This document shows, in pieces, positions 3,068 through 62,893 of a stretch of DNA of 64,000 nt (position 1 is the stretch's first letter; every line of letters begins with the position of its first letter). Location: assembly GCA_937920105.1 (NCBI GenBank), contig CALETH010000028.1, forward strand, positions 19,273 to 83,272. Reading direction: 5' to 3'. Under the pieces are notes generated by a model. It saw nothing but the letters and a program-made list of their open reading frames with translations, was not told the origin of the DNA and did not search any database. The DNA comes from an uncultured Bacteroidota bacterium (GTDB lineage: Bacteria > Bacteroidota > Ignavibacteria > UBA10030 > UBA8401). The translations under genes were made by a program, and so were the position numbers.

Positions 3068-3097
3068 AGATTCCCACTTAAAGCATGTGGGAATGAC
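3068..3097. repeat. GC-rich hairpin of the GATTCCC(R)C...G(Y)GGGAATGAC family
   Basis: Sequence gattcccac-ttaaagcat-gtgggaatgac. It is a variant of a motif that recurs in many intergenic regions of this window. Confidence 0.5.
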
Positions 3098-8773: not shown

Positions 8774-9517
8774 TTATTTTTGTGGATTGATTGAAGAATT
8801 TAATTCAACTATTTTTTTCCAACTAATTTCACCATTATCATTACAAAAATTATCAAAAAATTCTTTGGTAAATTTATTTATCATTTGAGAATATGACTGC
8901 AAAAAAATATCATTTTTTTCTTTTGCTTTATGTCCGAGTGGTTCAATAATATCTGTATAAAGATTTAAATCTCCAGAAATAAATTCCCAAAATTTTTGAC
9001 CGCAATACTTAAAGTATTCTCCTTTATCAACATTATTCTCTCTACCATAACAGCAACCATTAACTGCAACAACGATAAGTTTTGAATTACTTGTTCGTAA
9101 CGATTTCTTTGCTGTCGTAAAATCAGCAATCATTTTTTTAATTTGTTGTGCATTTCCCCAATTCGGTCCTGATTTTATAGTAACAATATATCGAATTCCA
9201 TCTTTATCAAATTCAAGGTCTATTCCTGATATTCCCGATTTCCAGCCATCATATATTTTTTGATTAATAAATATGGCAAGTCCTTCTAACCAATCACCAA
9301 ATATTGTTTCTTCACTTGAAGAAATATACGCATCAACAATTCCTTTAATAATTTGTTCTGATGTTAAAACATATTTTGCTTTAAATAAATAGGGATTTTT
9401 TTTCTTTAATACAGTTAAAAGTTTCAAACCATCTAAACTTTGTATTCTTTTCTTATGAAAGGTTTCTATATTTTCTTCAACGTATTGCGTAACGTCTTTG
9501 AGTTTTAACTTCTTCAT
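8774..9517 (-). CDS. Putative Type II restriction endonuclease (partner of the adjacent methyltransferase)
   Basis: Overlaps the 3' end of the methyltransferase gene by 41 bp on the same strand. No recognisable housekeeping family. Segment GIDLEFDKDGIRYIVTIKSG could be a PD-(D/E)xK-like core. The call rests mainly on context. Confidence 0.45.
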   Translation of the reverse strand: MKKLKLKDVTQYVEENIETFHKKRIQSLDGLKLLTVLKKKNPYLFKAKYVLTSEQIIKGIVDAYISSSEETIFGDWLEGLAIFINQKIYDGWKSGISGIDLEFDKDGIRYIVTIKSGPNWGNAQQIKKMIADFTTAKKSLRTSNSKLIVVAVNGCCYGRENNVDKGEYFKYCGQKFWEFISGDLNLYTDIIEPLGHKAKEKNDIFLQSYSQMINKFTKEFFDNFCNDNGEISWKKIVELNSSINPQK

Positions 9518-10358
9518 AAATAATTTTAGTTTCTTCTAATAAAGGCAACTCCTTATTTTGCAATTCATTTTTTACCATTTGATAATATTCAGGAACAACA
9601 TCTATACCAATAGAATGTCGTTGCATTCTATGAGCAACAAGTATTGTTGTACCTGAACCCATAAATGGGTCAAGAACAGTATCATATTTTTTAGTGAAAA
9701 GTTTGATGAACCATTCCGGTAATTCTTCAGGAAATGCAGCAGAGTGATTTTTATTATTACATTCTGTTGCAAGATGTAAAACATTTGTTGGATATGCTTT
9801 ATCTCTATGTAACCAATTAGAAATTTTTTTTCCGAAACCACTGCCAACTTTAGAAACATCTCTTACCTTATCTGTATTTGATAAATTTTTGAGACGTGTT
9901 TTTGACCACTCACCCATCGGAACCATTACTTCATCTTGATACATTGCAAAATGTTTGGATTTATTAAATTGTAATAAACGTTCCCACGCATCACGAAATC
10001 TGTTTGGCCATTTTCCTGGATAACTATTTTTTTTATGCCAAATAAATTCTTCTGTCCACAACCAACCTTGTTTTCTCATTTCCAAAATTAATTCCATTAC
10101 ATAAGTACTTCTTTCACCATTTACAACTTTTTCTTTAATATTAAGAATAAAAGTTCCAGTTGGTTTTAATACTCGTAAAAGTTCTGCAGAGATTGGTAAA
10201 AACCATTCAACATACTTTTCATGCGAAACACCTCCGTATGTATTTTTTCTTTGGTCTGCATACGGTGGAGATGTTACAATAAGGTCAACAGAATTTTCAG
10301 GAATTTTTTGAAGTTCCTTTGCACTATCACCCAGATATAAATTTGCTTTTATATTCAT
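9477..10358 (-). CDS. DNA methyltransferase, beta-class amino-MTase (N4-cytosine or N6-adenine)
   Basis: Motif IV TSPPY near the N-terminus and motif I DPFMGSGTT near the C-terminus (circularly permuted beta order). Has the HRDKAYPT pre-motif-I segment. Confidence 0.85.
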   Translation of the reverse strand: MNIKANLYLGDSAKELQKIPENSVDLIVTSPPYADQRKNTYGGVSHEKYVEWFLPISAELLRVLKPTGTFILNIKEKVVNGERSTYVMELILEMRKQGWLWTEEFIWHKKNSYPGKWPNRFRDAWERLLQFNKSKHFAMYQDEVMVPMGEWSKTRLKNLSNTDKVRDVSKVGSGFGKKISNWLHRDKAYPTNVLHLATECNNKNHSAAFPEELPEWFIKLFTKKYDTVLDPFMGSGTTILVAHRMQRHSIGIDVVPEYYQMVKNELQNKELPLLEETKIIYEEVKTQRRYAIR

Positions 10359-14804: not shown

Positions 14805-14841
14805 GGATTCCTGTCCGTGTTTGATACGGGACAGGAATGAC
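14805..14841. repeat. GC-rich hairpin of the GGATTCC...GGAATGAC family (variant)
   Basis: Sequence ggattcctgtccgt-gtttgat-acgggacaggaatgac. Confidence 0.5.
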
Positions 14842-19816: not shown

Positions 19817-19825
19817 AATCAACAT

Positions 19826-19877
19826 CATTCCCGCACGTTCCTGACCTGTCGTCAGGACAGGTTTTAGCGGGAATCCA
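19826..19877. repeat. Compound GC-rich hairpin CATTCCCGC...(inner CCTGACCTGTCGTCAGGACAGG)...GCGGGAATCC
   Basis: The outer stem belongs to the GTCATTCCCGC family. A nested inner inverted repeat sits within it. Confidence 0.55.
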
Positions 19878-19897: not shown

Positions 19898-20473
19898 ATG
19901 AACATCGGAATTTTCGGCGGAACATTTAATCCACCACACATCGGACATTTACTTGCTGCACAATCAGTACTAGAGCAAGGACAATTAGATAAAATTATTT
20001 TTGTTCCATCCTACATCACACCACATAAAAATAATGGAGAAGAAATTCTGGCACACCACCGTTTAACAATGACAAAACTTGCAATTCAAGAAAATCTATC
20101 ATTTGAATGTTCAGATATCGAAATTCAAAAACAAGGAACATCCTATACCTATCAAACATTAGAATATTTTCAACAACAATATCCAGCAGCAAAATTTTTT
20201 CTCATTATTGGAATAGATAATTTTATTACATTTGAGCAATGGAAATTTCCAGAAAAAATTTTAAAAATGGCAACTCTTCTTGTTATAAACCGTCCACCAA
20301 AACAAACAATTCCCATAACAAAAATTCCGGCAAAACACATACTCATTCCAGATATTGAAATTTCATCCACAACCATTCGCAGCCGTGTAAAAAACAATCT
20401 CCCCATTCGATATTATGTGACCCCAAAAGTAGAAGAATACATTATTAAAAACTTACTCTATAACTATGATTAA
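19898..20473 (+). CDS. nadD: Nicotinate-nucleotide adenylyltransferase
   Basis: IGIFGGTFNPPHIGHL. Confidence 0.9.
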   Translation: MNIGIFGGTFNPPHIGHLLAAQSVLEQGQLDKIIFVPSYITPHKNNGEEILAHHRLTMTKLAIQENLSFECSDIEIQKQGTSYTYQTLEYFQQQYPAAKFFLIIGIDNFITFEQWKFPEKILKMATLLVINRPPKQTIPITKIPAKHILIPDIEISSTTIRSRVKNNLPIRYYVTPKVEEYIIKNLLYNYD

Positions 20474-20490
20474 ATGATGTGTATGATGGA

Positions 20491-20535
20491 ATGAAGTAGT
20501 TGAGTAGTGAAGTAGATGAGTGGATGAGATAACTA
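20491..20535. repeat. GAGTAGTG(A/G)AGTA direct-repeat block
   Basis: Sequence gaagtagttgagtagtgaagtagatgagtggatgag. Related blocks occur at 22851-22890 (reverse complement), 40921-40957 (reverse complement) and 48651-48705. Confidence 0.55.
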
Positions 20536-22728: not shown

Positions 22729-22883
22729 TTGGTAAAACAAAACCCTGCCAGATTTTAATTCGCCTGTGGCGAACTGGCAGGGTTTATTTTGTTTTTGTTT
22801 ACGAGATTCCTCACTACTCTCGGAATGACAATCATATAAATACAAAAATTCTCATCTACTCCACTACTCATCTACTCAATCAC

Positions 22884-31508: not shown

Positions 31509-32285
31509 TTATTGATTGTATCGTGAAAAATAATTATCTATTTCGGTTCGTAGTTCAATTCCAACTTTTTCAAAAATAGTAAGTAATTGTTGATATGTAC
31601 CTTCTCCACCAAGAAAATCCCAAAATTCGTTTGCTACTTTTAACTCATTTTCTAAATCCAACATTCCTCTCATTGTCCAACGATTATAGGGTTGCGGTTC
31701 ATACGGATTATACGGTATTGCGACAAGTGAATGAACTTTTGCTTTTGGCTCATTGGCAAGTGTTACAGCTACCCACTCTAAAAGAGTTCGTTTAAATTCT
31801 TTAAAACCGCCTGCATTGGGTTTTGCTGTTTTTATATCAAAAAGAAAAATTTGATTATTCTTATCTACTAATTTTATATCTACTTTTGTTGGTTTTACAG
31901 TAATCATTTTTCCTTTTCTACAAACATTTCTAATTTTTTCTATTTCTGAATTTTTATTTGGTGAGGTTTTTGCTGTCGTAAGTCCATCCATAATTTGTTG
32001 GATAACTTTTTGTGCTTCTTCACTTATTTCAGTTCCTGCTGTTGCTTGTGATGTTACTTCTTTAAAATTTGTTAATGCTAAGGCCACAGCGACTGGCTCA
32101 AAAATGCTTGTACCAAAATTTGTATTAAGAGAATGTATAAATGAAAACAACGCCATTCTATCTTTACCTAAAAGACGTGTATGAAATGGCATTGATGCTG
32201 GTTCTGGCTTATAGTTTTGAAATTTACGTCGTAAATTTTCTTTAAGAACAGTTTCTATTTGTTGAATTTGTAATTTTTCTAACAA
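31509..32285 (-). CDS. Putative Type II restriction endonuclease (PD-DxK)
   Basis: Overlaps the 3' end of the methyltransferase gene by 7 bp. KLVD-x9-DIK fits a PD-(D/E)xK core. Confidence 0.5.
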   Translation of the reverse strand: MLEKLQIQQIETVLKENLRRKFQNYKPEPASMPFHTRLLGKDRMALFSFIHSLNTNFGTSIFEPVAVALALTNFKEVTSQATAGTEISEEAQKVIQQIMDGLTTAKTSPNKNSEIEKIRNVCRKGKMITVKPTKVDIKLVDKNNQIFLFDIKTAKPNAGGFKEFKRTLLEWVAVTLANEPKAKVHSLVAIPYNPYEPQPYNRWTMRGMLDLENELKVANEFWDFLGGEGTYQQLLTIFEKVGIELRTEIDNYFSRYNQ

Positions 32286-33865
32286 GACTTTACTTCTTTC
32301 AAATGAAAAATTATTTCCGCATACGCTGTTTTATCTTTTTCTGTACGGTTTAATACGGGACGTTTAAATTGATTAACGATTTTCATTTCTGCTTTTTCTG
32401 CAATTATTGGATATAAGTTAAATTTATCATTAGAAACTAAAAATATATTATAATTTTCTTCTAAATATTGTTTGCAATTATTTAATACAGCGGAAATTCC
32501 ATCCACATATAAACGTTGTGCTTCTTTTGTTTGTTTTTTTGCAAGTGGTCCTATTTCCAATTCATCATTTCGCTCAAAACCAAATAAATCGTATGCGTAC
32601 GCATGTTGTTCATGATAATCAATTAATCCAACATACGGAGGCGAAGAAAAAATTCCTTGAATTTTCTTTTCTTTTACTATTGCAGCAAATGCTGGAAATA
32701 TTTTTTGCAGTTGTTTATAAATATCAATAGTACGAGAATCTCCTGTTAAACATATTTGATTGGTATTTGTTCGTAGTGAGGTAAATTCGCTTAATCGTTT
32801 TATGGTATCTTTGGAATATCGTTCCCACCAATCATACATAGAAAAAAGCGGTTTACAAATTTTTCCATGTTTTGCACAATAATAAGTACTGGTAATTGGT
32901 TCAATTAATGTTGCTAAATCAGCATGAGTTGTTGCCCTACAAGTTCTCACCGTTCTACTTAAAATAATACTTACTATTTTTTTAACTTGTGAATTTTTGA
33001 TGGATTTTACTAATTCAAAAACAAAATCGATTTCTTTTCTTACTGGATACAAGTACCATGTATCCAAAAAAGTTTTTTTGTTTTTTTGCTGTATTTGAAT
33101 AGAAAATTGTTTTACTAGTTTTTGAAATATGGGTTGGAATTTTTGAACTTTATCTTGTGTGTATTCCAATTCATTTATTTTTTTTTCTTTCAGCCAATGT
33201 TTATAATCGGGTGATGGAAAGTATGTGTTATTAAAGGTGGTGAGTTTTTCTAGAAGTGCTTCCTCAAATTGTCTGTTGGAATGACTTGCAATAAATTGTT
33301 GTAGTTTGGAAGAAATATTTTTTACTTCAATAAGTATATCTGATAAATTATAATGAGCAATTTTTGCATTGGAAATGTGTGTATTAAATGCAGAAACATC
33401 TATACCAATTGCATGAATTCCTAATTCATTGGCTTGCACTAAAGTTGTTCCACTTCCACAAAATGGGTCAAGAACAATATCTCCTGCTTGAAAATATTTT
33501 TCTTTTTTAAATTCATCTGTATGATTATCTAAAAAATATTCCACAAGTTGTGGAATAAATTTTCCTTTATAAGGATGTAATCGATGAACATGTTTTGTAG
33601 TTTCTGCTTCTTTTAAATAATCAAATGATAAATTCCAATTCAAATCATTGCCAAGTTGTTTTTTCCAATTTAATTCTCGTTTTCCGTAAAATGATTCATA
33701 GTATTTACGTAATTCATCTTTTTTAATCAAAGGATTTCCATTATTACCTACTTTTTTAATTTTTCCGTAATTAATCAAATAAGTAATATTAGACGTTGTT
33801 ACATTTTTGTTCAAATGTTCCGACGCCCAAATGCTTGCTTCTTTTATTGTTAAAAAATCGTTCAT
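32279..33865 (-). CDS. DNA methyltransferase (amino-MTase, alpha-like order) with an N-terminal HTH-like region
   Basis: Motif I VLDPFCGSGTT (~residue 130) preceded by HRLHPYKGKFIPQLVEYFL. Motif IV SSPPY lies near the C-terminus. Confidence 0.8.
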   Translation of the reverse strand: MNDFLTIKEASIWASEHLNKNVTTSNITYLINYGKIKKVGNNGNPLIKKDELRKYYESFYGKRELNWKKQLGNDLNWNLSFDYLKEAETTKHVHRLHPYKGKFIPQLVEYFLDNHTDEFKKEKYFQAGDIVLDPFCGSGTTLVQANELGIHAIGIDVSAFNTHISNAKIAHYNLSDILIEVKNISSKLQQFIASHSNRQFEEALLEKLTTFNNTYFPSPDYKHWLKEKKINELEYTQDKVQKFQPIFQKLVKQFSIQIQQKNKKTFLDTWYLYPVRKEIDFVFELVKSIKNSQVKKIVSIILSRTVRTCRATTHADLATLIEPITSTYYCAKHGKICKPLFSMYDWWERYSKDTIKRLSEFTSLRTNTNQICLTGDSRTIDIYKQLQKIFPAFAAIVKEKKIQGIFSSPPYVGLIDYHEQHAYAYDLFGFERNDELEIGPLAKKQTKEAQRLYVDGISAVLNNCKQYLEENYNIFLVSNDKFNLYPIIAEKAEMKIVNQFKRPVLNRTEKDKTAYAEIIFHLKEVKSC

Positions 33866-33878
33866 TGTTCTAAAATAG

Positions 33879-33950
33879 ATTCCTCGCTACGCTCCCGATA
33901 AGTCCCGCTTTGGCGGGATAAATACGGGACAGGTCGGAATGACAAATTTT
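33879..33950. repeat. GC-rich hairpin cluster (GATTCC...GTCCCGCTTTGGCGGGAT...GGAATGAC)
   Basis: Member of the GTCATTCCCGC family with a nested GTCCCGC/GCGGGAT hairpin. Confidence 0.5.
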
Positions 33951-33981
33951 TATTATCCTTCCTAATTCTGACTTCTTACTT

Positions 33982-34995
33982 CTACATTAAAAACTTTCCT
34001 TTTTCCATAATTTTTTCGTCGTCCATCCAAATATCAAAATTGCGACCAACGCAATCTATGTGTGTGGTGGAAATCCATGTTTGGCCAGTGTGTTCTGCGT
34101 AAGGATGTCCGAAGGCAATGTGAATTCCGGGGATTTTTTCATCTTGCAAAATATTTCCTATCACATTTTTTATGGCGATGTTTGTTCCAATAGCAAATTC
34201 TCCAACACGATTACTGTTTTCATCAGTGTTGGTGTAGGCAGTAAATTCTTGTAATAGTTCTTTATTACTGCATTCTATTTTTGCGATACGATTTTCTACT
34301 ATATCTATATAGACTGGAGTTTTTTGTATATCTCCATATTTTTGGCAAAGATAATCTCCTACTACACCATCAACAACAAATTTTCCGTTGGTATTTTGTG
34401 GGGATGTGAAAATTTCTCCTCCGGGAAGATTCCCCCATTTTTCCGGTGTAATAATTCCGCTGGTTTTTAACCATTTAAGATTGGGTGAAAATGTTGCTAT
34501 AATATTGGTTCCTGCGGGTGTTGTGGCTTTAATGATTTTTGTTTGACGTGCTTTTTCTACTAATTTTTGACTGATTGCATCGACTTGTAAAAAATCTGCC
34601 TGCATTCCTTCTAACATTATTTGCTTATCTATATTGACCATGTGTCCGTGACGAATTTTGTGTTGTCCTACCACTTTCGTCATTTGAATTCGTGAGCCAA
34701 GTTCTCCTGTTTGTACCATGCAAGCAAATATACTGACTTGCGATTTTGCAAGGTCTTCCAAAATTGGTTGCGGCATATCTTTTAATGGTCGTTGTGCGTA
34801 ATCTTCCAATACAAAAACGCTGTATTCTGAGCCAACTTTTTCTATTTCATGGATGAGTGCTGAAGCGATTTCTATTGATTTTCTATCGGTAATCAATGTC
34901 ATTCGTTCGTTTGGTTTGAGGCGAAGACACACGTTGATTGCATTATATGCTCCTTTACTTAATCGTGTGTCAAATGTTACGGTTGTTTCTGTCAT
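33982..34995 (-). CDS. M29-family aminopeptidase (AmpS/PepS-like)
   Basis: 337 aa. The ...GIHIAFGHPY... and VVDGVVGDY segments are typical of thermophilic-type M29 aminopeptidases. Confidence 0.65.
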   Translation of the reverse strand: MTETTVTFDTRLSKGAYNAINVCLRLKPNERMTLITDRKSIEIASALIHEIEKVGSEYSVFVLEDYAQRPLKDMPQPILEDLAKSQVSIFACMVQTGELGSRIQMTKVVGQHKIRHGHMVNIDKQIMLEGMQADFLQVDAISQKLVEKARQTKIIKATTPAGTNIIATFSPNLKWLKTSGIITPEKWGNLPGGEIFTSPQNTNGKFVVDGVVGDYLCQKYGDIQKTPVYIDIVENRIAKIECSNKELLQEFTAYTNTDENSNRVGEFAIGTNIAIKNVIGNILQDEKIPGIHIAFGHPYAEHTGQTWISTTHIDCVGRNFDIWMDDEKIMEKGKFLM

Positions 34996-36515: not shown

Positions 36516-37634
36516 TTATTTTTGTAATCCTGATGTTGTTTCGCTAACAATGTAATCTACAACGGCTCGCATATCACGAGTTTTTTCCCATACTTTTACT
36601 TGTCTATCAGCACCAGTTCCATTGTTGAGCATTTCGTACACGTAATTTATTTCTTCACGACTTCCTAAATCGTCAACAACGTCATCGACAAATTCCAAAA
36701 GTTCATTAATGAGTGTGTTGGTTGGTACTTCTTCTTGTTTTCCGAAATCTATAAGTTTTCCGGAAATTCCATACCGTGCAGCTCGCCAACGGTTTTCATT
36801 AATTAATCTCCCTTTATAAATTCTAAATCCGAGATTTTGTTTGAAGAGTTTGTAGAGTTTTGCAGTTACTGCTTGCATGAGTGCCGCAAGTGCGATGGTT
36901 TCATCAACTCGCATGGGAATATCACAAATTCTCCATTCTAATGTGTGAAACATTGGATGCAAACGTATATCCCACCAGATTTTTTTTGGATTATCAATAC
37001 AGTTGGTTTTTACTAAAAGTTTTACATATTCTTCGTACTCAGAAAGACTTTCAAAAACATCGGGAACTCCTGTGCGGGGAAAGCGTTCAAAAATTTTTAT
37101 ACGATAGGATTTAAATCCCGTGTTGCTTCCTTCCCAAAATGGTGAGTTGGTGGAAAGTGCAAAAATATGCGGGATAAAATATCGTGCGGTATTCATAATT
37201 TGAATTGCTGTTTCACGGTCAGGCATTCCAACATGAACATGCAATCCGAAAATGAGATTGGCTCTCGCAATTTGCTGCATATCTTCTACAATAATTTTGT
37301 AGCGGATGCCATCGGTAATTTTTTGGTCTTCCCATCGTGAAAAGGGATGTGTTCCTGCAGCAGCAATTCGCATTCCTGCACGTTCGGCAAGCTTGGCAAG
37401 TTCTGTCCGCAGTTTTATTACTTCTCTTCGTGCTTCGGAAATATTTTTGCAAACGTCTGTTCCGACTTCCACAACGGATTGGTGCATTTCTGGTTTGACA
37501 TTTTCTTTGAGTATCATTTTCCCATCTTCCAAAATTTGCTGGATATGAGAATGAAGTTCTCGTGTTGCTGGATTGACGATTTGAAATTCTTCCTCTATGC
37601 CGAGGGTGAATTGTTCGCTTGGGAGTTTTTTCAT
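36516..37634 (-). CDS. YbdK-type carboxylate-amine ligase (GCS2 family)
   Basis: FTLGIEEEFQIV N-terminus and overall GCS2 layout, 372 aa. Confidence 0.8.
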   Translation of the reverse strand: MKKLPSEQFTLGIEEEFQIVNPATRELHSHIQQILEDGKMILKENVKPEMHQSVVEVGTDVCKNISEARREVIKLRTELAKLAERAGMRIAAAGTHPFSRWEDQKITDGIRYKIIVEDMQQIARANLIFGLHVHVGMPDRETAIQIMNTARYFIPHIFALSTNSPFWEGSNTGFKSYRIKIFERFPRTGVPDVFESLSEYEEYVKLLVKTNCIDNPKKIWWDIRLHPMFHTLEWRICDIPMRVDETIALAALMQAVTAKLYKLFKQNLGFRIYKGRLINENRWRAARYGISGKLIDFGKQEEVPTNTLINELLEFVDDVVDDLGSREEINYVYEMLNNGTGADRQVKVWEKTRDMRAVVDYIVSETTSGLQK

Positions 37635-37679
37635 AATGTTTTTTTTAGAATTCAGAAGTCAGAATTCTGAATTCAGTTT

Positions 37680-37914
37680 TTATTTAGTTTTTGAATTATA
37701 AATTGCTTTCATATATCCTGTTAATAATTTACTTACCTCTTCTAAATTTTCAAAAAGTTCATTGGTATTTGCATAATGCAAGTCAGAAATCAAAATGAGA
37801 TAATATCGGCATTCTTCCAGCGAACCTTGTGCAATATTATACAGATAAAACAAATTGATGTGCTTTTTGCCAAACAATTAAATCTTTAAAAGTTTTCGCT
37901 GTTTCGTTTTGCAT
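37680..37914 (-). pseudogene. Degraded four-helix-bundle protein gene (23S rRNA IVS protein family)
   Basis: Frame A reads MQNETAKTFKDLIVWQKAHQFVLSV*. Frame B then reads NIAQGSLEECRYYL...LTGYMKAI. The N- and C-terminal signatures of the family are present, but about 35 aa are missing and there is a frameshift between them. Confidence 0.55.
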
Positions 37915-37950
37915 ACTAATTCTGATTTCTGAATTCCGACTTCTGTATTC

Positions 37951-38904
37951 TTATAAAGATTTTCCACCCGCAAATGCTTTCACAAATTTTCCCCAGGTAA
38001 GATTATTTTGGCCGGGTTTGTGTTCTTTTGCTTTTTGGATAAGCATGTTTGCTGCTGCTTCAAGTACCCAATCAAAATTTTCTTGTCCAACAGAATTTAC
38101 ATCTGCATCGGGTGCGGGATTGCAGAAATCTATTGCTAAAGGTACACCATCTCGCACAGCAAATTCTACAGTATTAAAATCGTAACCCAATGCTTGGTTA
38201 AGTGCGAGTGTATCTTTTTCTACTCGTTCTAACAATTTTTTTGCAACCGGTGGTCCATTTTTTACATAACGGAGATGGTGTGGATTGCGTGGTTCGTATT
38301 GCATGATGCGGACATCTTTTCCACCAATGCAATAGCAACGAAAATATTCTGTGAAGATGACTTCTTCTTGCAACATCATTACAAGTTGTCCGGTTTCATT
38401 GTAGGCTTTGAAAAATTCTTCGTAGCTGCTGAGTTTGTAAACATTTTTCCAACCACCGCCGGCGAATGGTTTGAAGTATGCGGGAAATCCGACATAGTTA
38501 AAAATTCCTTCCCAATCTAATGGATAGGCGAGATTTCTCATGGAACGTTCGTTGGTATCGGGTGGATGTTGGTTAGATGGTAAGAGTACAGTTTTTGGTA
38601 CGGCAACTCCGATTTTTGTGGCAAGTGCGTTGTTAAAAAATTTTTCATCGGCGCTCCACCAAAATGGATTGTTGACTACTGCTGTTCCGCTGAGTGCTGC
38701 GTTTTTTAAATATCCGCGATAAAATGGGATGTCTTGCGAAATGCGGTCTAAGATAACATCGTACTGGCATTGTTCGCCTTGTACTACTTTATCTATGCGG
38801 ACAAATTCTGCGGTGATTCCTTTTTCTTTTTTTGAGTTGATGCGTTCTACTAATGCTGGCGGAAAGGTGTTTTCCTGCCCAAAGAGGATTCCGATTTTTT
38901 TCAT
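37951..38904 (-). CDS. ATP-grasp-family ligase (RimK/GshB-like)
   Basis: 317 aa. GFPAYFKPFAGGGWKNV ATP-binding loop and overall ATP-grasp layout. Confidence 0.65.
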   Translation of the reverse strand: MKKIGILFGQENTFPPALVERINSKKEKGITAEFVRIDKVVQGEQCQYDVILDRISQDIPFYRGYLKNAALSGTAVVNNPFWWSADEKFFNNALATKIGVAVPKTVLLPSNQHPPDTNERSMRNLAYPLDWEGIFNYVGFPAYFKPFAGGGWKNVYKLSSYEEFFKAYNETGQLVMMLQEEVIFTEYFRCYCIGGKDVRIMQYEPRNPHHLRYVKNGPPVAKKLLERVEKDTLALNQALGYDFNTVEFAVRDGVPLAIDFCNPAPDADVNSVGQENFDWVLEAAANMLIQKAKEHKPGQNNLTWGKFVKAFAGGKSL

Positions 38905-38958
38905 GGTGTTTCCTTTCTAAAAATATAAATGAATAATTTTTACTTTTTCAATTTTAAA

Positions 38959-39675
38959 TTAAATTCTTGACAAATACTTTGGGAACATTTCTCGCCACCA
39001 GGGCCAATCGTGACCAACGCCTTGTCTATCATCTAACCAATGATTTATTCCTTTAGAGAAAAGTATTCCGGAAAGTTTATGATTTTCTCCGCGGCAACTA
39101 TCCCACTCACCTGTTCCTAACACAATTCCCATTTGATGTAAGTGGTGAAAATACCATGGGTCACTTAAATTCGGCATGTAATCCATTGGATTGTTGAAAT
39201 AACAATTATCATCATAATATCCATCAATAAATTGTTTAATATCAAATGCACCGCTCATGCTGAATACATATCCTACTTTATCGGGATGACGAAATGCGAT
39301 ATTGGCTGAATGATATCCACCAAAACTACATCCGGCAACACCAACTTTGCTTCGTCCGGTTTCTCGCATAGCATATTCAAATACATCGTGCAAAATTACA
39401 TTTTCGTACGCCATATGGGTTTTTACTCTATCGGCGGGATGGATGGATTTGTTGTACCAACTTTGTTCATCTATTCCATTCGGACAGTAAATTTTAATGA
39501 GTCCGGCATCTAAAAAATATGAGGCAGATTCTATTAATTTAAAATCTTTGTTTTGATAATGATTACCGAGTGAGGTGGGAAATGCGATGATGGGATATCC
39601 GGAATGTCCGAAAACAGCCATTTCAAAATCTCTGCTGAGGTACGGTGTGTACCAGCGTATAAGTTGTTCTTGCAT
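38959..39675 (-). CDS. Alpha/beta-hydrolase esterase (esterase D / enterochelin-esterase-like)
   Basis: GCSFGG nucleophile elbow. Putative-esterase family layout. Confidence 0.7.
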   Translation of the reverse strand: MQEQLIRWYTPYLSRDFEMAVFGHSGYPIIAFPTSLGNHYQNKDFKLIESASYFLDAGLIKIYCPNGIDEQSWYNKSIHPADRVKTHMAYENVILHDVFEYAMRETGRSKVGVAGCSFGGYHSANIAFRHPDKVGYVFSMSGAFDIKQFIDGYYDDNCYFNNPMDYMPNLSDPWYFHHLHQMGIVLGTGEWDSCRGENHKLSGILFSKGINHWLDDRQGVGHDWPWWREMFPKYLSRI

Positions 39676-39885
39676 GTTATATCAATTTTTTATAAGTGAT
39701 TGGAAAGGTTTTATGAATATATAATTTATGTGAAATATAGCACTTTTTCTATGAAAGTAAAAAGGATAATGGATGAAAGATAAAAAACGAATTACTAAAT
39801 ACTAAAAGAACTTTTTTCTTGCAAAGTCGCAAACATAATATTCGGAATTCAAAATCCGAAATTCTAATTTCTTCCTTCTTAATTC

Positions 39886-40662: not shown

Positions 40663-40957
40663 TTAAAAATTAACAATGAAAAATTATCAATATTATTTTT
40701 TTTAAATTACAGATATAAGATTTTTTTCTCGCAAAGACGCAAAGTCGCTAATCTTTTAATAAATGGAACACTGGGTATACATTTTATTTCTATAATTACA
40801 ATAATTCATTGTTTTTTTCACATAAAAAATAGAACACTGATTTGTTATCCGCCACGGGCGGATTACTATGATATTCACTGAAATATTCTATCTTCTACCT
40901 TCTGAATTCTGACTTCTTAATTCTCACTTACTCCACTACTCATTTACTCAACTACTT

Positions 40958-42328
40958 TCAAACTTTTTTAAACTCCGCCACCAAACCTTGAACAACATTC
41001 TTCGCATCTCCAAAAAGCATTCGTGTGTTGGGTTTGAAAAATAATGGATTTTCAATTCCTGCAAAACCAGAAGCCATTGAACGTTTCATTACGATTACAG
41101 TTTTTGCCATATCAACATTGATAATCGGCATTCCATAAATGGGACTACTTTTATCTTCTCGTGCAGACGGATTGACAACATCATTTGCTCCAATGACTAA
41201 ACACACATCGATGGTTTCCATAATGGGATTGACGGCGTCCATTTCAAAAAGTTTATCGTACGAAACATTGGCTTCAGCAAGTAATACGTTCATGTGTCCG
41301 GGCATTCTTCCTGCAACGGGATGGATGATGTAACGAACTTCTGCTCCATTGTGTTCCAACAATTCTCCCAACTCGCGAACAACGTGTTGGGCTTGTGCAA
41401 CAGCAAGTCCGTAACCGGGAACAACCGCAACAGAACGTGCTGCTTCCAAAATGTAATACGCATCTTCAACAGAAACAGATTTTACTTCTCCTTGTGCTGC
41501 ATTACTTGTTTGCATTGTTACCGAACCAAATCCGCTGAACAACACATTGGTGAGTGAACGGTTCATTGCTTTGCACATAATTTGTGTAAGAATAATTCCG
41601 CTGGCACCAACAAGTGAACCAGTAACAATCAACACATTATTTTGGATAGCAAATCCGGCAAAACATGCAGCAATTCCAGAATAACTGTTGAGCAGCGAAA
41701 TCACCACCGGCATATCCGCTCCACCAATTGGAATAACGGATGTTATCCCTAAAATAAATGATAATACAATTATAAAAAGAAAAATTTCCGGACTTAATTC
41801 TGGTTGGAGAACAAAAATAATTCCCAATACAATTGCTGAAAGTAAAAGTAATCCATTTACAAATTTTTGTCCGGAAAAAAGAATTGGTTTTCCTGTCATC
41901 ACTTCTTTGAGTTTTGCCCATGCAATAACACTTCCGGTAAATGTTATTCCGCCAACAAGGATTGTGAGAAATAATGTTGTGGACGTGTAGCAATCAAACG
42001 AAGCTGCTCGGTGATATTCTGCCCAGCCAACAAGCAAACTCGCAAGTCCGCCATAACCATTTAAGAGTGCAACCATTTGCGGCATTTCGGTCATCTTTAC
42101 AATTTTTGCGAGGATTATTCCGATGACAGAACCAATGAGCATTCCAACAATAATCCACGTGAAATCAAGAATTTGGTAATGAATGATTGTTGCGAGTATT
42201 GCGATGAGCATTCCAACGGCAGAAATTAAATTTCCACGACGTGCGGTTTCCGGTTTTCCTAATTTTTTTAATCCGATAATAAAAAGTGTTGCGGCGATGA
42301 TGTATAAAATTTCTGCAAATGATGTCAT
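40958..42328 (-). CDS. pntB: NAD(P) transhydrogenase subunit beta
   Basis: 456 aa. Membrane domain followed by the dIII NADP(H)-binding domain (GYGLAVAQAQH...HPVAGRMPGHMNVLLAEA). Confidence 0.95.
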   Translation of the reverse strand: MTSFAEILYIIAATLFIIGLKKLGKPETARRGNLISAVGMLIAILATIIHYQILDFTWIIVGMLIGSVIGIILAKIVKMTEMPQMVALLNGYGGLASLLVGWAEYHRAASFDCYTSTTLFLTILVGGITFTGSVIAWAKLKEVMTGKPILFSGQKFVNGLLLLSAIVLGIIFVLQPELSPEIFLFIIVLSFILGITSVIPIGGADMPVVISLLNSYSGIAACFAGFAIQNNVLIVTGSLVGASGIILTQIMCKAMNRSLTNVLFSGFGSVTMQTSNAAQGEVKSVSVEDAYYILEAARSVAVVPGYGLAVAQAQHVVRELGELLEHNGAEVRYIIHPVAGRMPGHMNVLLAEANVSYDKLFEMDAVNPIMETIDVCLVIGANDVVNPSAREDKSSPIYGMPIINVDMAKTVIVMKRSMASGFAGIENPLFFKPNTRMLFGDAKNVVQGLVAEFKKV

Positions 42329-42628
42329 TTATTTTCCGCTCTCTTTCTTTTTGAACATTTCTAACATGCGGTGAGTTACTAAATATCCGCCAACAACATT
42401 TATCATGGCAAAAATAATTGCTAATGTTCCCAATACAATACTGAGCGTTTCATTTCCTCCTTCTCCGGCAGCAATGATTGCACCAACTACGGTGATTCCC
42501 GAAATTGCATTGGAGCCAGACATGAGTGGTGTGTGAAGTGTGGATGGAACTTTTGAGATGAGTTCAAAACCGAGAAAGATGGCGATGACAAAAACAAAAA
42601 GTAGTGGTACGAGTAGTTCGAGTGTCAT
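42329..42628 (-). CDS. pntA: NAD(P) transhydrogenase subunit alpha, membrane part 2
   Basis: 99 aa membrane protein (SGSNAISGITVVGAIIAAG). Abuts pntB. No alpha part 1 (dI) gene lies upstream. Confidence 0.9.
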   Translation of the reverse strand: MTLELLVPLLFVFVIAIFLGFELISKVPSTLHTPLMSGSNAISGITVVGAIIAAGEGGNETLSIVLGTLAIIFAMINVVGGYLVTHRMLEMFKKKESGK

Positions 42629-42726
42629 AATTTTTCCTTTGATTGATATTTAATTGCTTGCCACAGATTTCACTGATTAACACAGACTTTTTATAATTCT
42701 GCTTTCTTAATTTTTCCTTCTTACTC

Positions 42727-42775
42727 TAATTTGGACACACCCCTAATTCGCCATAGGCGAACCCTCTCTCCACCG
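42727..42775. repeat. Direct repeat TTTGGACACACCCCTnATTC...CCCTCTCTCCAyCGCT, copy 1 (copy 2 at 43746-43790)
   Basis: The two copies bracket the 42864-43733 gene. Copy 1 carries an extra TTCGCC-ATA-GGCGAA hairpin. Confidence 0.7.
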
Positions 42776-42863
42776 CTTAACCCAACGTATCCCGCAAAAA
42801 AATGCGGGACACAAAAAACGTGGAGGGGACTTATTTTGATTTCTGTATTCTGCTTTCTAAATT

Positions 42864-43733
42864 CTATTTTCTACATTCTCTCAATTTACTACGATATGGT
42901 TCTTCCAAATATTTATCTGCTAAATAGAGTACACCATCTAACCCTTTTTCAATCCATTGACGTAACAATTGAGAATCACTGTGTGTTTCTCTATCAAGCC
43001 ACAATGCTACTGGTAATGCTCCCCACTTTTCCTCAAATTTTCCTTTTGATAATTTATTGAAAAGTGAATCATCAAAGTTTTGGTGATGAAATGCAAAACA
43101 AAATTTTTCAACAAATATGGGTTCTAATTTTTTCAATGTATTTTTTGTAATTTCGGGAATTTTTCCTTGTGTATCTATTTTCCATTTTTGAGATAATGAA
43201 TAATAATTTCCTAATCCCTCATTGACACATTCCAACAAAATTTTTTCCCATTGTGTTGTGATAATAATTTTATCTTTTCTCCATGATTTATGAAGAAGAT
43301 GAATATATTCATGCGAAAATATTCTATCTATTCGCTCTTTATTTTCCTCAGATTCTCCTTTACCGTATTCAGAAAGTTGTTGAATATCAAAACAAATGGT
43401 ATTGTTACCATGAGTGAAAGCATCATCTGCTAATTGATTACCAATAACAATATAAATAGTATCGGATAATGAAACATTAAAAAATGGTTTTTGTAACTTT
43501 GGTAGGATTTTTTTCCAACGTGGAATTGCTTGATAAATATTTTTTATCCATGAAGAATCTTTGGTAGAGGATATAATATTCAATGTAGTGCTATCATTGT
43601 AATTATATCTTTTATAAATAATATCCATCCAAATTTTTGTAGGATAACCAAGTGAATCAAAAGCAATGATGGGATGAAGTTCTTGTGCGAGTGAAAAACT
43701 TGAAATGAAAAAACAGGTAACAATAAATTTCAT
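42864..43733 (-). CDS. Secreted HExxH protein (putative zinc peptidase), unknown family
   Basis: Signal peptide MKFIVTCFFISSFSLAQE and an HEYIHLLH motif. Confidence 0.45.
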   Translation of the reverse strand: MKFIVTCFFISSFSLAQELHPIIAFDSLGYPTKIWMDIIYKRYNYNDSTTLNIISSTKDSSWIKNIYQAIPRWKKILPKLQKPFFNVSLSDTIYIVIGNQLADDAFTHGNNTICFDIQQLSEYGKGESEENKERIDRIFSHEYIHLLHKSWRKDKIIITTQWEKILLECVNEGLGNYYSLSQKWKIDTQGKIPEITKNTLKKLEPIFVEKFCFAFHHQNFDDSLFNKLSKGKFEEKWGALPVALWLDRETHSDSQLLRQWIEKGLDGVLYLADKYLEEPYRSKLRECRK

Positions 43734-43852
43734 AAAATTTCTTAATTTTTGGACACACCCCTCATTCCCCTCTCTCCATCGCTACAGAGGGGAGGATTTT
43801 TTTGCATTCTAAATTCCTACTTCTTAATTCTTCCTTACTTCTAACTTCTGAA

Positions 43853-44776
43853 TCAACTCATCTCCAACATTTTTTGAATTGGTTTAAGTGCTTTTTCCAT
43901 AATTTCTGCACTTAAAGTAATTTGTGGAGATTTATTTTTCATACAAAGATAAAGTTTTTCCATCGTGTTGAGTTTCATATACGGACATTCATTGCATGAA
44001 CAGTTTGCTTCCGGTGGTGCGGGAATAAATTTTTTCTCCGGACATTTTTTTTCCATTTGATGTAATATTCCGGATTCGGTTGCAACAATAAATTCTTTGT
44101 GTGGATTTGTTTGAACATAGTTTAACAATGCACTGGTAGAACCAATAAAATCTGCTTTTTCTAAAATATGTTCTTCACATTCCGGATGTGCAATGAGTTG
44201 AGCATTTGGATGTTGCATTTGCAAGCCGATAATTTTACGTTCGCTAAATGTTTCGTGAACAATACATGCACCATTCCACAACAACATGTCTCTTCCCGTT
44301 TTCTTTTTAAGATAGCCACCTAAATTTTTATCCGGAGAAAATAAAATTTGTTGGTTGCGTGGAATTTGATTAATGATTTTTTCTGCATTGCTGGATGTGC
44401 AAATAATATCACTTAACGCTTTTACTTCTGCGGTGCAATTAATGTAAGTGATAGCAAGATATTCCGGATGGATTTCTCTAAATTTTTTAAATGCGGGTGG
44501 TGGACAACTATCCGCAAGAGAACAGCCAGCTTCTAAATCCGGCAACAATACTAATTTTTTTGGATTGAGAATTTTTGCTGTTTCTGCCATAAAATGAACA
44601 CCAGCAAACACAATAACATCCGCCGATGTTGAGGCAGCACGACGTGCAAGTTCCAAACTATCTCCCACAACATCCGCAATATCCTGAATTTCTCCTTCTT
44701 GATAATAATGTGCGAGGATTACTGCGTTCAGTTCTTTTTTAAGTTGGTGGATTTTTTCTACAAGGTTGGTTTCCAT
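43853..44776 (-). CDS. nadA: Quinolinate synthase
   Basis: [26 protein letters not shown]...FMAETAKIL and conserved Cys residues. Confidence 0.95.
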
Positions 44777-44862
44777 ATTTTTCTTAAGTTTTTGCAGCCT
44801 ATTTTTATTTGTATAAGATACAGACTAATGCAAGCAGTGTCAATAAAAACAAAAAAGGACGG

Positions 44863-44887
44863 ATTTTTCATCCGTCCTTAGATAACT
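44863..44887 (-). terminator. Rho-independent terminator (minus strand) after the LRR gene
   Basis: On the minus strand: aaggacggat-gaaaa-atccgtcc followed by ttttttg. Confidence 0.65.
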
Positions 44888-45551
44888 CAAACCATGATAA
44901 TCTTTTCATCGTACCAATCATGGTTTACTTCACCAACACCATTTTCTTAATTTCACTAAATTTTCCCGCAGTCAGTCTGTAAAAATATATTCCACCGGAT
45001 AATTGACTTCCATCAAAATTCACTTCATACACTCCAACTTTCTTTTCTCCATTCACTAGTGTTGCGACTTCTTTCCCTAACATATCATACACTTTCAATG
45101 TTACATAACTACTTATTGGTAGTTGATAATTGATTAGTGTTGATGGGTTGAATGGGTTCGGATAGTTTTGAGATATACTATATTCTGTTGGTACAAAATT
45201 CTTTTCTGGATGAATTGATGTGGTGGGTAGAGTTCCAGTCCCATATGCTTTCAAGGTATCTAATCCTTTGGTGGTGTTACTGGTAAGGATGATTTGGGTG
45301 GAATCTTTTCCTAATCCATTTGGAGTGAACTTTATTGTTATATTACTTGTTTGAGTAAATGGAATGTTATATTGACTGCTTCCTACAACCATAAATTTTG
45401 AATTTGCAATATTGATTGTATTGATTTTCAAGGTATCTCCTCCCATACATTGTACGGCAAAGGACATATCTTTATTGCTGCCTATACCAACATTCCCAAA
45501 ATCTATTGTGGTAGATGAATAATTTGATGTGGGAGCAGAAAGAGTCGTAAA
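44884..45551. repeat. Approximately 668-bp segment apparently identical to 48911-49578
   Basis: Side-by-side reading shows no mismatch. It covers the 3' UTR hairpin AACCATGAT...ATCATGGTT plus the last ~200 codons of both LRR genes. Confidence 0.8.
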
Positions 45552-46556
45552 ATAGCTTGCTGAAGAATATGGACTATTTCCTTTTATATTTTGTGCACGC
45601 ACTCCCCAAGCATATGTTGTATTATACAATAACGGTCCTATTTGTTTGGATGTATCGGTAAGCGTGGTATCAAGAAGAATAGTAACATTATTTCTTACTA
45701 CATGAAGAAAATATTTATGGGCAGAGGAAACTTTTTTCCATGTTAGTGTGGGATACAATGATTGATTGGTCGCATTGTTTACTGGGCTTACTATAATCGG
45801 TGTTGTTGGTGATGGAAGAACTACATACATTGCTGACATATCTTTTATTATGGATATACCTGATGGTGGATTTACCAATACATAAATAGTAGTAAGATTA
45901 GCATTAGAAGAACAATTTAAATTTTGTAATGAGGTATTGGTACTAATATCTAATGTAGTCAGTTTAGTGGAAGAACAATATAAATTTTGTAATGCGGTAT
46001 TGGTACTCACATTTAAACTCGTCAGATTAGTGGAAGAACAATATAAATATAGTAATGCGGTGGCTCCACTCACATTTAATGTACTGAGATTAGCATTATT
46101 AGAACAATCTAAATATTCTAATGCGGTATTGGTACTCACGTTTAAACTCGTCAGATTAGTGGAAGAACAATCTAAAGTTTGTAATGCGGTGGCTCCACTC
46201 ACATTTAATGTGCTGAGATTAGCATTAGTAGAACAATCTAAATATTCTAATGCGGTATTGGTACTCACGTTTAATGTGCTGAGATTTGGATTATCAGAAC
46301 AATCTAAAGTTTGTAATGCGGTAAATTTTTCTATCCCTTGTAAATTGGTAATTTGAGAGCTGGATATCTCTATGATACGTACGGCACTGATATTTTGTAC
46401 TATTACCGTATCATTAGTACCTTGGGTTATAGCGTTAGCACTGTTAATAAGTGCAGTTCTAAAATTTTGGTCAGGCACCCATACTTTTGTTTGGGCAGTG
46501 GTTATTCCTACAACCAGTAAGAATAATGCAACGAGTTTGGTAAGTTGTGTTTGCAT
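44925..46556 (-). CDS. LRR + FN3-like surface protein with a T9SS C-terminal sorting domain (paralog A)
   Basis: Signal peptide. Units with period of about 22-23 aa (LDCS.N.NLSTLNVS.NTAL). C-terminus YPNPFNPSTLINYQLP...KVYDMLGKEVATLVN...YFYRLTAGKFSEIKKMVLVK. Confidence 0.8.
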   Translation of the reverse strand: MQTQLTKLVALFLLVVGITTAQTKVWVPDQNFRTALINSANAITQGTNDTVIVQNISAVRIIEISSSQITNLQGIEKFTALQTLDCSDNPNLSTLNVSTNTALEYLDCSTNANLSTLNVSGATALQTLDCSSTNLTSLNVSTNTALEYLDCSNNANLSTLNVSGATALLYLYCSSTNLTSLNVSTNTALQNLYCSSTKLTTLDISTNTSLQNLNCSSNANLTTIYVLVNPPSGISIIKDMSAMYVVLPSPTTPIIVSPVNNATNQSLYPTLTWKKVSSAHKYFLHVVRNNVTILLDTTLTDTSKQIGPLLYNTTYAWGVRAQNIKGNSPYSSASYFTTLSAPTSNYSSTTIDFGNVGIGSNKDMSFAVQCMGGDTLKINTINIANSKFMVVGSSQYNIPFTQTSNITIKFTPNGLGKDSTQIILTSNTTKGLDTLKAYGTGTLPTTSIHPEKNFVPTEYSISQNYPNPFNPSTLINYQLPISSYVTLKVYDMLGKEVATLVNGEKKVGVYEVNFDGSQLSGGIYFYRLTAGKFSEIKKMVLVK

Positions 46557-48635: not shown

Positions 48636-48650
48636 ACAATTATCAATGGA

Positions 48651-48705
48651 GTATGTGAGTAGTGGAGTATATTGAGTAATTGAGTAACGAAGTAGATGAG
48701 TATTT
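48651..48705. repeat. GAGTAGTGGAGTA direct-repeat block
   Basis: Sequence gagtatgtgagtagtggagtatattgagtaattgagtaacgaagtagatgagta. Confidence 0.55.
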
Positions 48706-48951: not shown

Positions 48952-50715
48952 TTACTTCACCAACACCATTTTCTTAATTTCACTAAATTTTCCCGCAGTC
49001 AGTCTGTAAAAATATATTCCACCGGATAATTGACTTCCATCAAAATTCACTTCATACACTCCAACTTTCTTTTCTCCATTCACTAGTGTTGCGACTTCTT
49101 TCCCTAACATATCATACACTTTCAATGTTACATAACTACTTATTGGTAGTTGATAATTGATTAGTGTTGATGGGTTGAATGGGTTCGGATAGTTTTGAGA
49201 TATACTATATTCTGTTGGTACAAAATTCTTTTCTGGATGAATTGATGTGGTGGGTAGAGTTCCAGTCCCATATGCTTTCAAGGTATCTAATCCTTTGGTG
49301 GTGTTACTGGTAAGGATGATTTGGGTGGAATCTTTTCCTAATCCATTTGGAGTGAACTTTATTGTTATATTACTTGTTTGAGTAAATGGAATGTTATATT
49401 GACTGCTTCCTACAACCATAAATTTTGAATTTGCAATATTGATTGTATTGATTTTCAAGGTATCTCCTCCCATACATTGTACGGCAAAGGACATATCTTT
49501 ATTGCTGCCTATACCAACATTCCCAAAATCTATTGTGGTAGATGAATAATTTGATGTGGGAGCAGAAAGAGTCGTAAATTGATTTATCCTATAAGGACTG
49601 GTTCCCTTAACGTTTCTTGCTCGTACTTGCCATGTGTATATTGTATTATATAGTAACGGACCTATTTTTTTGGTGGTATCAACCAGTGTAGTATCTTTAA
49701 AAACTATAATATTGTTGTGTGATACTTCCAATTGATAGGTATGGGCAAAAGAAACTTTTCCCCATTTTAATGTTGGATATAATGATTGATTGGTCGCATT
49801 ATTTATTGGACTTAGTAAGATTGGCATTGCCGGAACTGGTGGAGTTACATAATTTGCTGACATATCTTTTACTTCTATTACACCTGGTGGTGGAAATGGA
49901 AGTATCCATACATATATAGTGGTAAGATTTGGATTTAACGAACAATCTACATCTGTTAATGCTGTATTTGCACTGATATCTAAAATACTAAGGTTATTAC
50001 CAAAACATTTTAAATATGTCAACGTTGTATTTCTATTTAAGTTCAATGTAGTTAGATTATTATTAACACAACTTAACGATATCAATGCTGTATTATTACT
50101 CACATCTAAGGTACTGATGTTATTATTAGAACAAGATAGTGTTTGTAATGCTGTATTTGTACTCACATCTAAGGTACTGATGTTATTATTAGAACAATAT
50201 AATGTTTGTAATGCTGTATTATTACTCACATCTAAGGTAGTAATATTCATAGAGGCACAATCTAAATGTGTTAATGCTGTATTTGCACTCACATCTAAAG
50301 TAGTGACCTTGTTGTTCGAACAATCTAAAACTTGTAATGCTGTATTATTACTTACATTTAGTATAGAAAGATTAGTGTTATAAAAACAGTTTAAATATGT
50401 TAATGCTAAATTGTTACTTACATCCAATGTGGTAAGTTGATTAAAAGCACAACTTAAATATTGTAATGCAGTAAATTTTTCTATTCCTTGTAAGTTAGTA
50501 ATTTGTTTATTATTAATAATTAAAGTATCAATCAAATTAATATTTGGCACTACTACAGTATCACTATTACCTTGAATAATATTATAAGTTGGAGAATGAT
50601 TAATAAGCGCTTTTCTAAAACTTGTATCAGGTACACATACTTTTGTTTGGGCAGTTATCTCTACAATAAATAATAATAATGCCACAAGGGTAAGTTTGGT
50701 TTTTATCATAATCAC
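48952..50715 (-). CDS. LRR + FN3-like surface protein with a T9SS C-terminal sorting domain (paralog B)
   Basis: Same architecture as 44925-46556. The last ~200 aa are identical. The N-terminal LRR region has diverged. Confidence 0.8.
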   Translation of the reverse strand: MIMIKTKLTLVALLLFIVEITAQTKVCVPDTSFRKALINHSPTYNIIQGNSDTVVVPNINLIDTLIINNKQITNLQGIEKFTALQYLSCAFNQLTTLDVSNNLALTYLNCFYNTNLSILNVSNNTALQVLDCSNNKVTTLDVSANTALTHLDCASMNITTLDVSNNTALQTLYCSNNNISTLDVSTNTALQTLSCSNNNISTLDVSNNTALISLSCVNNNLTTLNLNRNTTLTYLKCFGNNLSILDISANTALTDVDCSLNPNLTTIYVWILPFPPPGVIEVKDMSANYVTPPVPAMPILLSPINNATNQSLYPTLKWGKVSFAHTYQLEVSHNNIIVFKDTTLVDTTKKIGPLLYNTIYTWQVRARNVKGTSPYRINQFTTLSAPTSNYSSTTIDFGNVGIGSNKDMSFAVQCMGGDTLKINTINIANSKFMVVGSSQYNIPFTQTSNITIKFTPNGLGKDSTQIILTSNTTKGLDTLKAYGTGTLPTTSIHPEKNFVPTEYSISQNYPNPFNPSTLINYQLPISSYVTLKVYDMLGKEVATLVNGEKKVGVYEVNFDGSQLSGGIYFYRLTAGKFSEIKKMVLVK

Positions 50716-58243: not shown

Positions 58244-58309
58244 TCATGCCCGAATGTTTTCATCGGGCATCCACAAAATAGATTCCCGCTAAAAGCGTGC
58301 GGGAATGAC
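58244..58309. repeat. Two tandem GC-rich hairpins (GTCATGCCCGA...TCGGGCATC and GATTCCCGC...GCGGGAATGAC)
   Basis: Members of the GTCATTCCCGC family. Confidence 0.6.
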
Positions 58310-60161: not shown

Positions 60162-60247
60162 GTCATTCCCGCGAAAGCGGGAATCCAGTTTGTTTTTTAC
60201 AATAAAAATGGATGCCCAATAATCCCGACTTGTCGGGATGGGCATGA
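60162..60247. repeat. GC-rich hairpins GTCATTCCCGCGAAAGCGGGAATCC and nested GATGCCCAATAATCCCGACTTGTCGGGATGGGCATGAC
   Basis: Canonical member of the GTCATTCCCGC family, plus a second nested hairpin. Confidence 0.6.
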
Positions 60248-62821: not shown

Positions 62822-62893
62822 GTCATTCCTGCGAAAGCAGGAATCCACACATTTTATATTTCTGGATTCCCGCTAAAAACATGCGGGAATGAC
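62822..62893. repeat. Two tandem GC-rich hairpins GTCATTCCTGCGAAAGCAGGAATCC and GGATTCCCGCTAAAAACATGCGGGAATGAC
   Basis: Canonical members of the dispersed family. Confidence 0.65.

Follow-up and report, generated by a model that had tools for sequence, protein, structure and literature searches.

A transhydrogenase locus in which a predicted secreted metallopeptidase gene, flanked by two hairpin repeats, stands in the position of the dI gene

Results

Gene content of the locus

The 64-kb stretch of DNA analysed here, which we call the window, carries a pair of transhydrogenase genes, pntAB and pntB, preceded by an unnamed gene with an HExxH motif and, further upstream, by nadA, and the minus strand carries all of these genes. 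The quinolinate synthase gene nadA (43853-44776; Pfam NadA, 4e-124) is the upstream neighbour, with a predicted sigma-70-like promoter match, TTGACA-17-TATCTT, upstream of it at 44843-44815 and a canonical terminator of the gene that precedes it at 44879-44855. The HExxH gene (42864-43733) encodes a 289-aa protein that is predicted to be a secreted, gluzincin-like zinc metallopeptidase of an uncharacterised family. It is separated from pntAB by a 235-nt intergenic region that holds no credible small ORF or leader peptide, and the intergenic regions on its two sides contain imperfect direct repeats, called here copies A and B. The pntAB gene (42329-42628) encodes the small membrane subunit, that is, the C-terminal four-TM part of the alpha subunit (Pfam PNTB_4TM, PF12769, 1.6e-34), and pntB (40958-42328) encodes the beta subunit, made of the dII-beta membrane domain and the NADP(H)-binding domain dIII (NCBIfam PRK09444, 4.9e-148; Pfam PNTB, PF02233, 7.5e-190, matched in full length over residues 6-451 of 456). 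Both genes are intact, and the pntB start codon directly abuts the pntAB stop codon, with 0 intergenic bases. In a tblastn comparison with E. coli PntA, which is a fused protein, pntAB aligned with residues 430-509; because it matches only these residues, the enzyme is of the three-polypeptide type, and therefore a soluble dI subunit (PntAA) of around 380 aa is expected as a separate gene.

The neighbourhood consists of housekeeping genes, among them gltX, folK, adk, uvrA, nadD, dnaG, icd and uvrD. Two NAD-biosynthesis genes are present in the window, nadD (19898-20473; NCBIfam equivalog, 2.4e-54) and nadA (43853-44776), the latter two genes upstream of the transhydrogenase genes and on the same strand. 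The highest GC3 values of the window (0.30-0.35, compared with a mean of 0.22) are those of the segment 36516-42628, which comprises pntAB, pntB and the genes at 36516-39675 for a GCS2 ligase, a RimK/ATP-grasp-like protein and an esterase. The gene dnaG lies between two paralogous genes (44925-46556 and 48952-50715) for LRR plus Ig-like proteins that carry a C-terminal T9SS sorting domain; the DNA of the two paralogues is about 84-88% identical, including identical sequence just 3′ of the stop codons. The window also contains two type II restriction-modification gene pairs (8774-10358 and 31509-33865), one with an EcoO109I-like endonuclease and an N6/N4 methylase and one with a TdeIII-like endonuclease and a methylase.

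The missing dI gene

The preliminary description of this DNA, made from the sequence alone, had stated that pntAB and pntB are adjacent and intact, that the dI gene is absent in front of them and that the slot is occupied by a 289-aa signal-peptide protein with an HExxH motif. All three statements stand: the Pfam matches are full length and the invariant residues are kept (see below), the ORF at 42864-43733 carries HEYIH at residues 141-145, and the absence of dI extends to the whole 64 kb by both tblastn and Pfam. When the entire window was searched in six frames with E. coli PntA, pntAB was the sole match and the next best had E=0.55. Five dI proteins of Ignavibacteria type gave a best E of 0.2 in the window and of 0.12 within 42500-44000, and the AlaDh_PNT domains (PF05222/PF01262) were found in none of the 340-400-aa ORFs of the window. 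Thus, dI is absent across at least 21 kb upstream and at least 41 kb downstream of the pnt genes. A dI remnant between pntAB and nadA was also sought with the E. coli and the five Ignavibacteria queries, which returned only noise. Among proteins from elsewhere, the listed dI homologues are at least 81% identical and come from other MAGs; two candidates, P0109 and P0113, were discarded as they belong to canonical pntAA-pntAB-pntB operons of other MAGs.

How unusual is this gene order? A PntB scan of species-representative genomes listed 80 loci, 76 of them with enough upstream DNA to be informative, and in 75 of these 76 dI stands immediately in front of pntAB. Measured between the end of the dI match and the start of the pntAB match, the gap at the 75 loci has a median of 57 nt and never exceeds 395 nt; given this upper limit, no gene ever lies between the two in the comparison loci. 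In the closest genome locus, that of an Ignavibacteriales MAG whose PntB is 73% identical, the pntAA stop overlaps the pntAB start, and dI and pntAB are also adjacent in two further Ignavibacteria-type MAGs. The sole other exception among the 76 is a Novosphingobium sp. MAG (JAGREN010000015.1, 1-2800), in which the 2.5 kb before pntAB hold a carboxyltransferase-like gene and two small ORFs and no dI. The window is thus a true exception and, since dI adjoins pntAB in nearly all informative relatives, the arrangement is rare. The nearest PntB in a collection of 5.8 billion proteins is only 75% identical, and consequently there is no close relative with which the rearrangement could be dated.

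Could the order have been created by assembly? A chimeric join at the repeats that deleted pntAA, or an equivalent binning artefact, deserves mention because the 92-kb source contig appears to be metagenome-derived. However, an independent ENA assembly contig spans nadA-HExxH-pntAB-pntB and reproduces 42086-46274 with 99.95% identity (2 mismatches in 4189 nt), and because it shows the same gene order we rule out a misassembly. In addition, the exact repeats are only 15-20 nt long, below the k-mer size of assembly. An artefact of this kind is therefore extremely improbable.

Conservation of PntAB and PntB

A dI gene that is missing in front of pntAB may have been lost, leaving pntAB-pntB as a non-functional remnant on its way to decay. 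The absence of dI within 64 kb and its adjacency in 75 of 76 relatives are what such a loss would produce. However, both ORFs are full length, the pntAB stop still abuts the pntB start, and the protein sequences do not show the marks of decay. In an alignment with E. coli PntB and a further 119 homologues, the window PntB retained 109/109 invariant and 66/66 near-invariant residues (columns conserved in at least 97% of the sequences), a test that is insensitive to very recent loss. In PntAB, likewise, 15/15 invariant columns and 8/9 of the near-invariant ones are unchanged, with L to I as the single difference. Divergence is not excessive either, since the window PntB is 47.9% identical to that of E. 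coli, rank 35 of 120, where the median is 46.8%. We place no weight on a rate comparison in which the outgroups were picked by similarity to the window PntB, as this choice is biased toward the window. Because PntB and PntAB keep all invariant residues, the pnt genes are not decaying, and we regard a dead remnant as very unlikely. The conservation instead argues for continued purifying selection on pntAB-pntB and hence for a functional enzyme.

In transhydrogenase, hydride is transferred between the NAD(H) bound to dI and the NADP(H) bound to dIII. The three-polypeptide enzymes, as known from R. rubrum and T. thermophilus, have dI as a soluble polypeptide of its own, which docks on dIII, and for this reason operon linkage is not mechanistically required. 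The window genes resemble this type in their separate PntAB of around 100 aa and PntB of around 460 aa (dII-beta plus dIII), in the family-invariant residues, all of which are kept, and in the direct abutment of the pntAB stop and the pntB start; they differ from it in that the dI gene is not adjacent. Since a functional enzyme requires dI, we infer from the conservation of PntB and PntAB that the dI gene most probably lies at another place in the genome. Of the two alternatives given in the preliminary description, this one, a split transhydrogenase, is thereby favoured, though indirectly. Alternatively, the window may hold a divergent, partial pnt paralogue, with a complete operon located elsewhere in the genome.

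The HExxH protein

The N-terminus of the 289-aa protein is signal-peptide-like (MKFIVTCFFISSFSLA|QE). In an alignment of 64 sequences H141, H145 and E172 are invariant and E142 is conserved in at least 90%, and the pattern HExxH...EGxGNYYS of the family is a gluzincin signature. The AlphaFold model (pLDDT 92.8, pTM 0.90) predicts a gluzincin (clan MA), thermolysin-like fold with a third Glu ligand. Sequence databases place the protein less readily. It reaches the gathering threshold of no Pfam family (DUF5700 scores 18.5 bits under a threshold of 25 and matches 4/64 family members at E<0.01), NCBIfam gives no match, and the zinc site of the M9 collagenases matches marginally, with E about 0.02. 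The closest known systems are the gluzincins of clan MA(E), such as the M1 aminopeptidase catalytic domain, thermolysin M4 and M61, together with Pfam DUF5700; unlike the known gluzincins, with which it shares 8-13% sequence identity, the protein is a single domain of 270 aa plus a signal peptide. Its 85 homologues are at most 40% identical, all unnamed and without Pfam domains, and the family is small, with 196 cluster representatives among 1.84 billion. Three homologues examined on long contigs lie in unrelated neighbourhoods. The composition of the HExxH gene (GC 28.7%, GC3 0.179) is within the range of the genes of the window (33.1±3.7% and 0.22±0.05). We take the gene to be an ordinary resident, coding for a predicted secreted zinc peptidase-like protein, and see no functional link between this protein and Pnt.

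The flanking repeats

That degenerate direct repeats with hairpins flank the HExxH gene, as had been pointed out before, is correct. The 64 kb contain exactly two instances of the 15-nt box TTTGGACACACCCCT, one at 42730 and one at 43748 (0.05 expected; none of 100 shuffled sequences reached two), and CCCTCTCTCCAyCGCT is present at 42762 and 43768 with 15 of 16 positions matching. The similarity goes beyond these words, as the two intergenic regions align colinearly (42702-42880 with 43737-43851) in the order TTTCTTAATT, box, C-rich arm, G-rich arm (GAGGGGA), T-run and TTCT-rich units. In copy A (42702-42880) the box at 42730-42744 is followed by a small hairpin (42747-42761) and by a C-rich arm (42765-42773) that pairs with 42820-42828 and encloses a further hairpin at 42790-42809; a T-rich run comes next, and the TTCT-rich units behind it reach into the 3′ end of the HExxH ORF. 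In copy B (43737-43851) the box at 43748-43762 and a TCATTCC head precede the stem 43765-43773/43786-43794, a T-run at about 43796-43803 and TTCT-rich units that reach the nadA stop. Copy A has three insertions relative to B, one of which is a nested hairpin, TCCCGC-A7T-GCGGGA. Both copies are predicted to fold into a C-rich/G-rich stem, with plus-strand z-scores of -2.6 and -1.6, and the stems are in different registers.

Searches for further copies returned little. An nhmmer model of A and B found elsewhere in the window only the TTCT-rich tail and one partial match (33890-33989), Rfam has no entry for the region (in the window it reports one tRNA-Ser only), and the repeat box is absent from the other 82 loci examined. 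In the JGI metagenome contigs the 20-nt box TTTGGACACACCCCTCATTC had no relevant match; the single hit lies in a GC-rich, eukaryote-like tandem-repeat contig and was dismissed as chance. In that contig (WASV01151376.1, 1896-2798) TTTGGACACACCCCTCATTC is found three times inside a satellite-type repeat.

As its second alternative, the preliminary description had proposed that a cassette bounded by these repeats displaced the dI gene and left a dead PntAB. In its broader form, the HExxH gene would be a mobile or recombined cassette between direct repeats, whose insertion or recombination separated or displaced pntAA. The two copies of the 15-nt box flank exactly this gene, the intergenic regions on its two sides are homologous from end to end, and the HExxH homologues are singleton-like and without conserved synteny, all of which would fit. 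But the pnt genes are undecayed and no dI remnant remains at the junctions. A Pfam scan of the window's 49 ORFs of 150 aa or more found no transposase, integrase, recombinase or RAYT, and no pair of inverted repeats brackets the gene; the repeats beside it are in direct orientation, carry indels and measure about 60-110 nt, so that the duplicated unit is far larger than a target-site duplication. GC and GC3 of the gene are normal for the window, the TTCT tracts are generic, and the 20-nt box had no relevant metagenome match. Moreover, had the two repeats recombined with each other, a single copy would be expected, not a pair. An integron cassette is a comparable known element, being also a single promoter-poor ORF between structured, imperfectly repeated sites of the same orientation. 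In contrast to integron cassettes, there is no IntI, no cassette array and no inverted R″/R′ core sites (RYYYAAC...GTTRRRY) at the ends of the element, and the neighbours are housekeeping genes; RYYYAAC-like words, the core of attC sites, occur in A only adjacent to each other and in the same orientation, and are absent from B. We thus consider a cassette origin unlikely, and the repeats are probably not the borders of a mobile element.

A different relationship is suggested by a family of REP-like intergenic palindromes, tgTCATTCC-(hairpin)-GGAAT(C), with nine copies in the window where shuffled sequences give 0.6 (3070-3096, 14807-14840, 19825-19874, 22806-22828, 33879-33942, 58282-58308, 60163-60184, 62823-62844 and 62866-62892). 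Some copies are nested or paired in inverted orientation, and the nested one at 33879-33942 contains a TCCCGC...GCGGGA hairpin like that inserted in copy A. Copy B reads TTTG-GACACACCCC-TCATTCC-stem-loop-GGAGGAT, that is, it combines the TTTG...TCATTCC head of the family, a 10-nt insertion and the tail GGAGGAT, and the head of copy A is degenerate (TAATTCG). Hence A and B look like diverged members of one subfamily of these palindromes, a resemblance that draws on the hairpin architecture and the short head (TTTG...TCATTCC), which is clear in copy B alone; because there are two copies only, a covariation test is impossible. With REP/BIME elements the palindrome family of the window shares the short imperfect palindromes in exclusively intergenic positions, usually after genes, the conserved head and tail and the nested or composite forms. 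Copies A and B differ from the canonical REP-like copies of the window by the 10-nt insertion GACACACCCC and the C-rich/G-rich stems, and from REP/BIME systems in that no RAYT transposase is seen in the window.

The TTCT-rich units at the end of both copies have a wider distribution. On the coding strand these units appear as C-poor, purine-rich tracts of 30-70 nt that come directly after the stop codon of many genes, with the motifs GAAGTAA/GAGTAGT/GAATTAA in a diffuse 7-8-nt period and usually a hairpin next. They follow genes of either orientation (39859-39885, 40912-40957, 43805-43849 and 22828-22883 after minus-strand genes; 20474-20532 and 48636-48687 after plus-strand genes), including pntB, a HEAT-repeat gene, nadD, dnaG and an acyl-CoA dehydrogenase gene. 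Among the long intergenic regions downstream of genes, 7 of 27 contain no more than one C within the first 35 nt, compared with 0/27 in the G-poor control. Because such tracts are a generic 3′-UTR feature after many genes, the TTCT part of the repeat is not specific to the HExxH gene. The idea that they provide stop codons in all three frames was abandoned, since this is true in 4/27 only and the periodicity is diffuse, with a lag of 7-8. The tracts are reminiscent of the cyanobacterial STRR heptamer repeats.

In both copies the G+C-rich hairpin and T-run are intrinsic-terminator-like on the plus strand, antisense to the genes, and a G+C-rich stem followed by a U-run is absent from the minus (coding) strand of either copy. 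A consensus terminator scan omitted both hairpins as their loops exceed 8 nt. Just upstream of the copies lie weak sigma-70-like hexamers (42669-42697, 10/12; 43700-43729, 9/12). The hairpin and T-run on the plus strand, together with these hexamers, make a plus-strand sRNA or antisense-terminator reading possible, in which A and B would be paralogous sRNA genes or antisense terminators, each with a promoter-like site, a C-rich single-stranded box and an intrinsic terminator, acting cis-antisense to the intergenic mRNA of nadA-HExxH-pntAB. It is in keeping with this that the homology of A and B begins near the predicted transcription start sites and that both elements end in hairpin and T-run. 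Nevertheless, promoter-like matches are at background level (23 found compared with 22.2 expected from shuffled sequence), there is neither an Rfam match nor any homologue for a covariation test, the folding z-scores are modest, and the stems of A and B are in different registers. We consider this reading quite unlikely, though the terminator-like orientation on the plus strand is a point against taking A and B as hairpins at the 3′ end of the minus-strand transcripts, which does not explain it.

Discussion

We consider it likely that the locus combines three features, namely a split pnt gene set, an unrelated gluzincin-like neighbour and two REP-like repeat copies. In this model, a chromosomal housekeeping region of a low-GC bacterium of Ignavibacteria/Bacteroidota type would encode a proton-translocating transhydrogenase of three polypeptides whose gene set is divided, with pntAB-pntB at this position and dI unlinked elsewhere. 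The usual position of dI would have been taken by an unrelated gene for a secreted zinc metallopeptidase of predicted gluzincin fold, a member of a small uncharacterised family. Copies A and B would be paralogous short hairpin repeats, a subfamily of the REP-like palindromes with the 10-nt insertion GACACACCCC after the TTTG head, each followed by the purine-rich tract (TTCT-rich on the plus strand) that stands after many stop codons in this DNA. Most likely the copies either serve in the RNA between genes, as hairpins or terminator-type structures, or are selfish repeats of REP-like type.

More far-reaching scenarios can be imagined. The organism might lack a canonical dI altogether while selection maintains PntAB-PntB, with dII and dIII working with a non-canonical NAD(H) partner or in a dI-independent role, or the two repeat copies might be the visible part of a recombination or sRNA element, so far undescribed, by which operons are rearranged in this lineage. 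We give such scenarios only a slim chance. The locus is a rare gene-order variant, not a new system, and it leaves our understanding of transhydrogenase, gluzincin and repeat systems unchanged.

What can be learned from such a variant? The HExxH protein is a confidently modelled addition to a small unnamed gluzincin family, and the repeats, together with the purine-rich post-stop tracts, provide raw material on the repeat repertoire of an undersampled lineage. For annotation and metabolic-reconstruction pipelines the locus would be a warning that local context alone is insufficient to call Pnt absent or broken. The state without a linked dI was seen in only about 1-2% of the sampled genomes. 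If dI is indeed unlinked, this bacterium would offer a natural example of a three-polypeptide Pnt that dispenses with operon linkage and translational coupling of dI.
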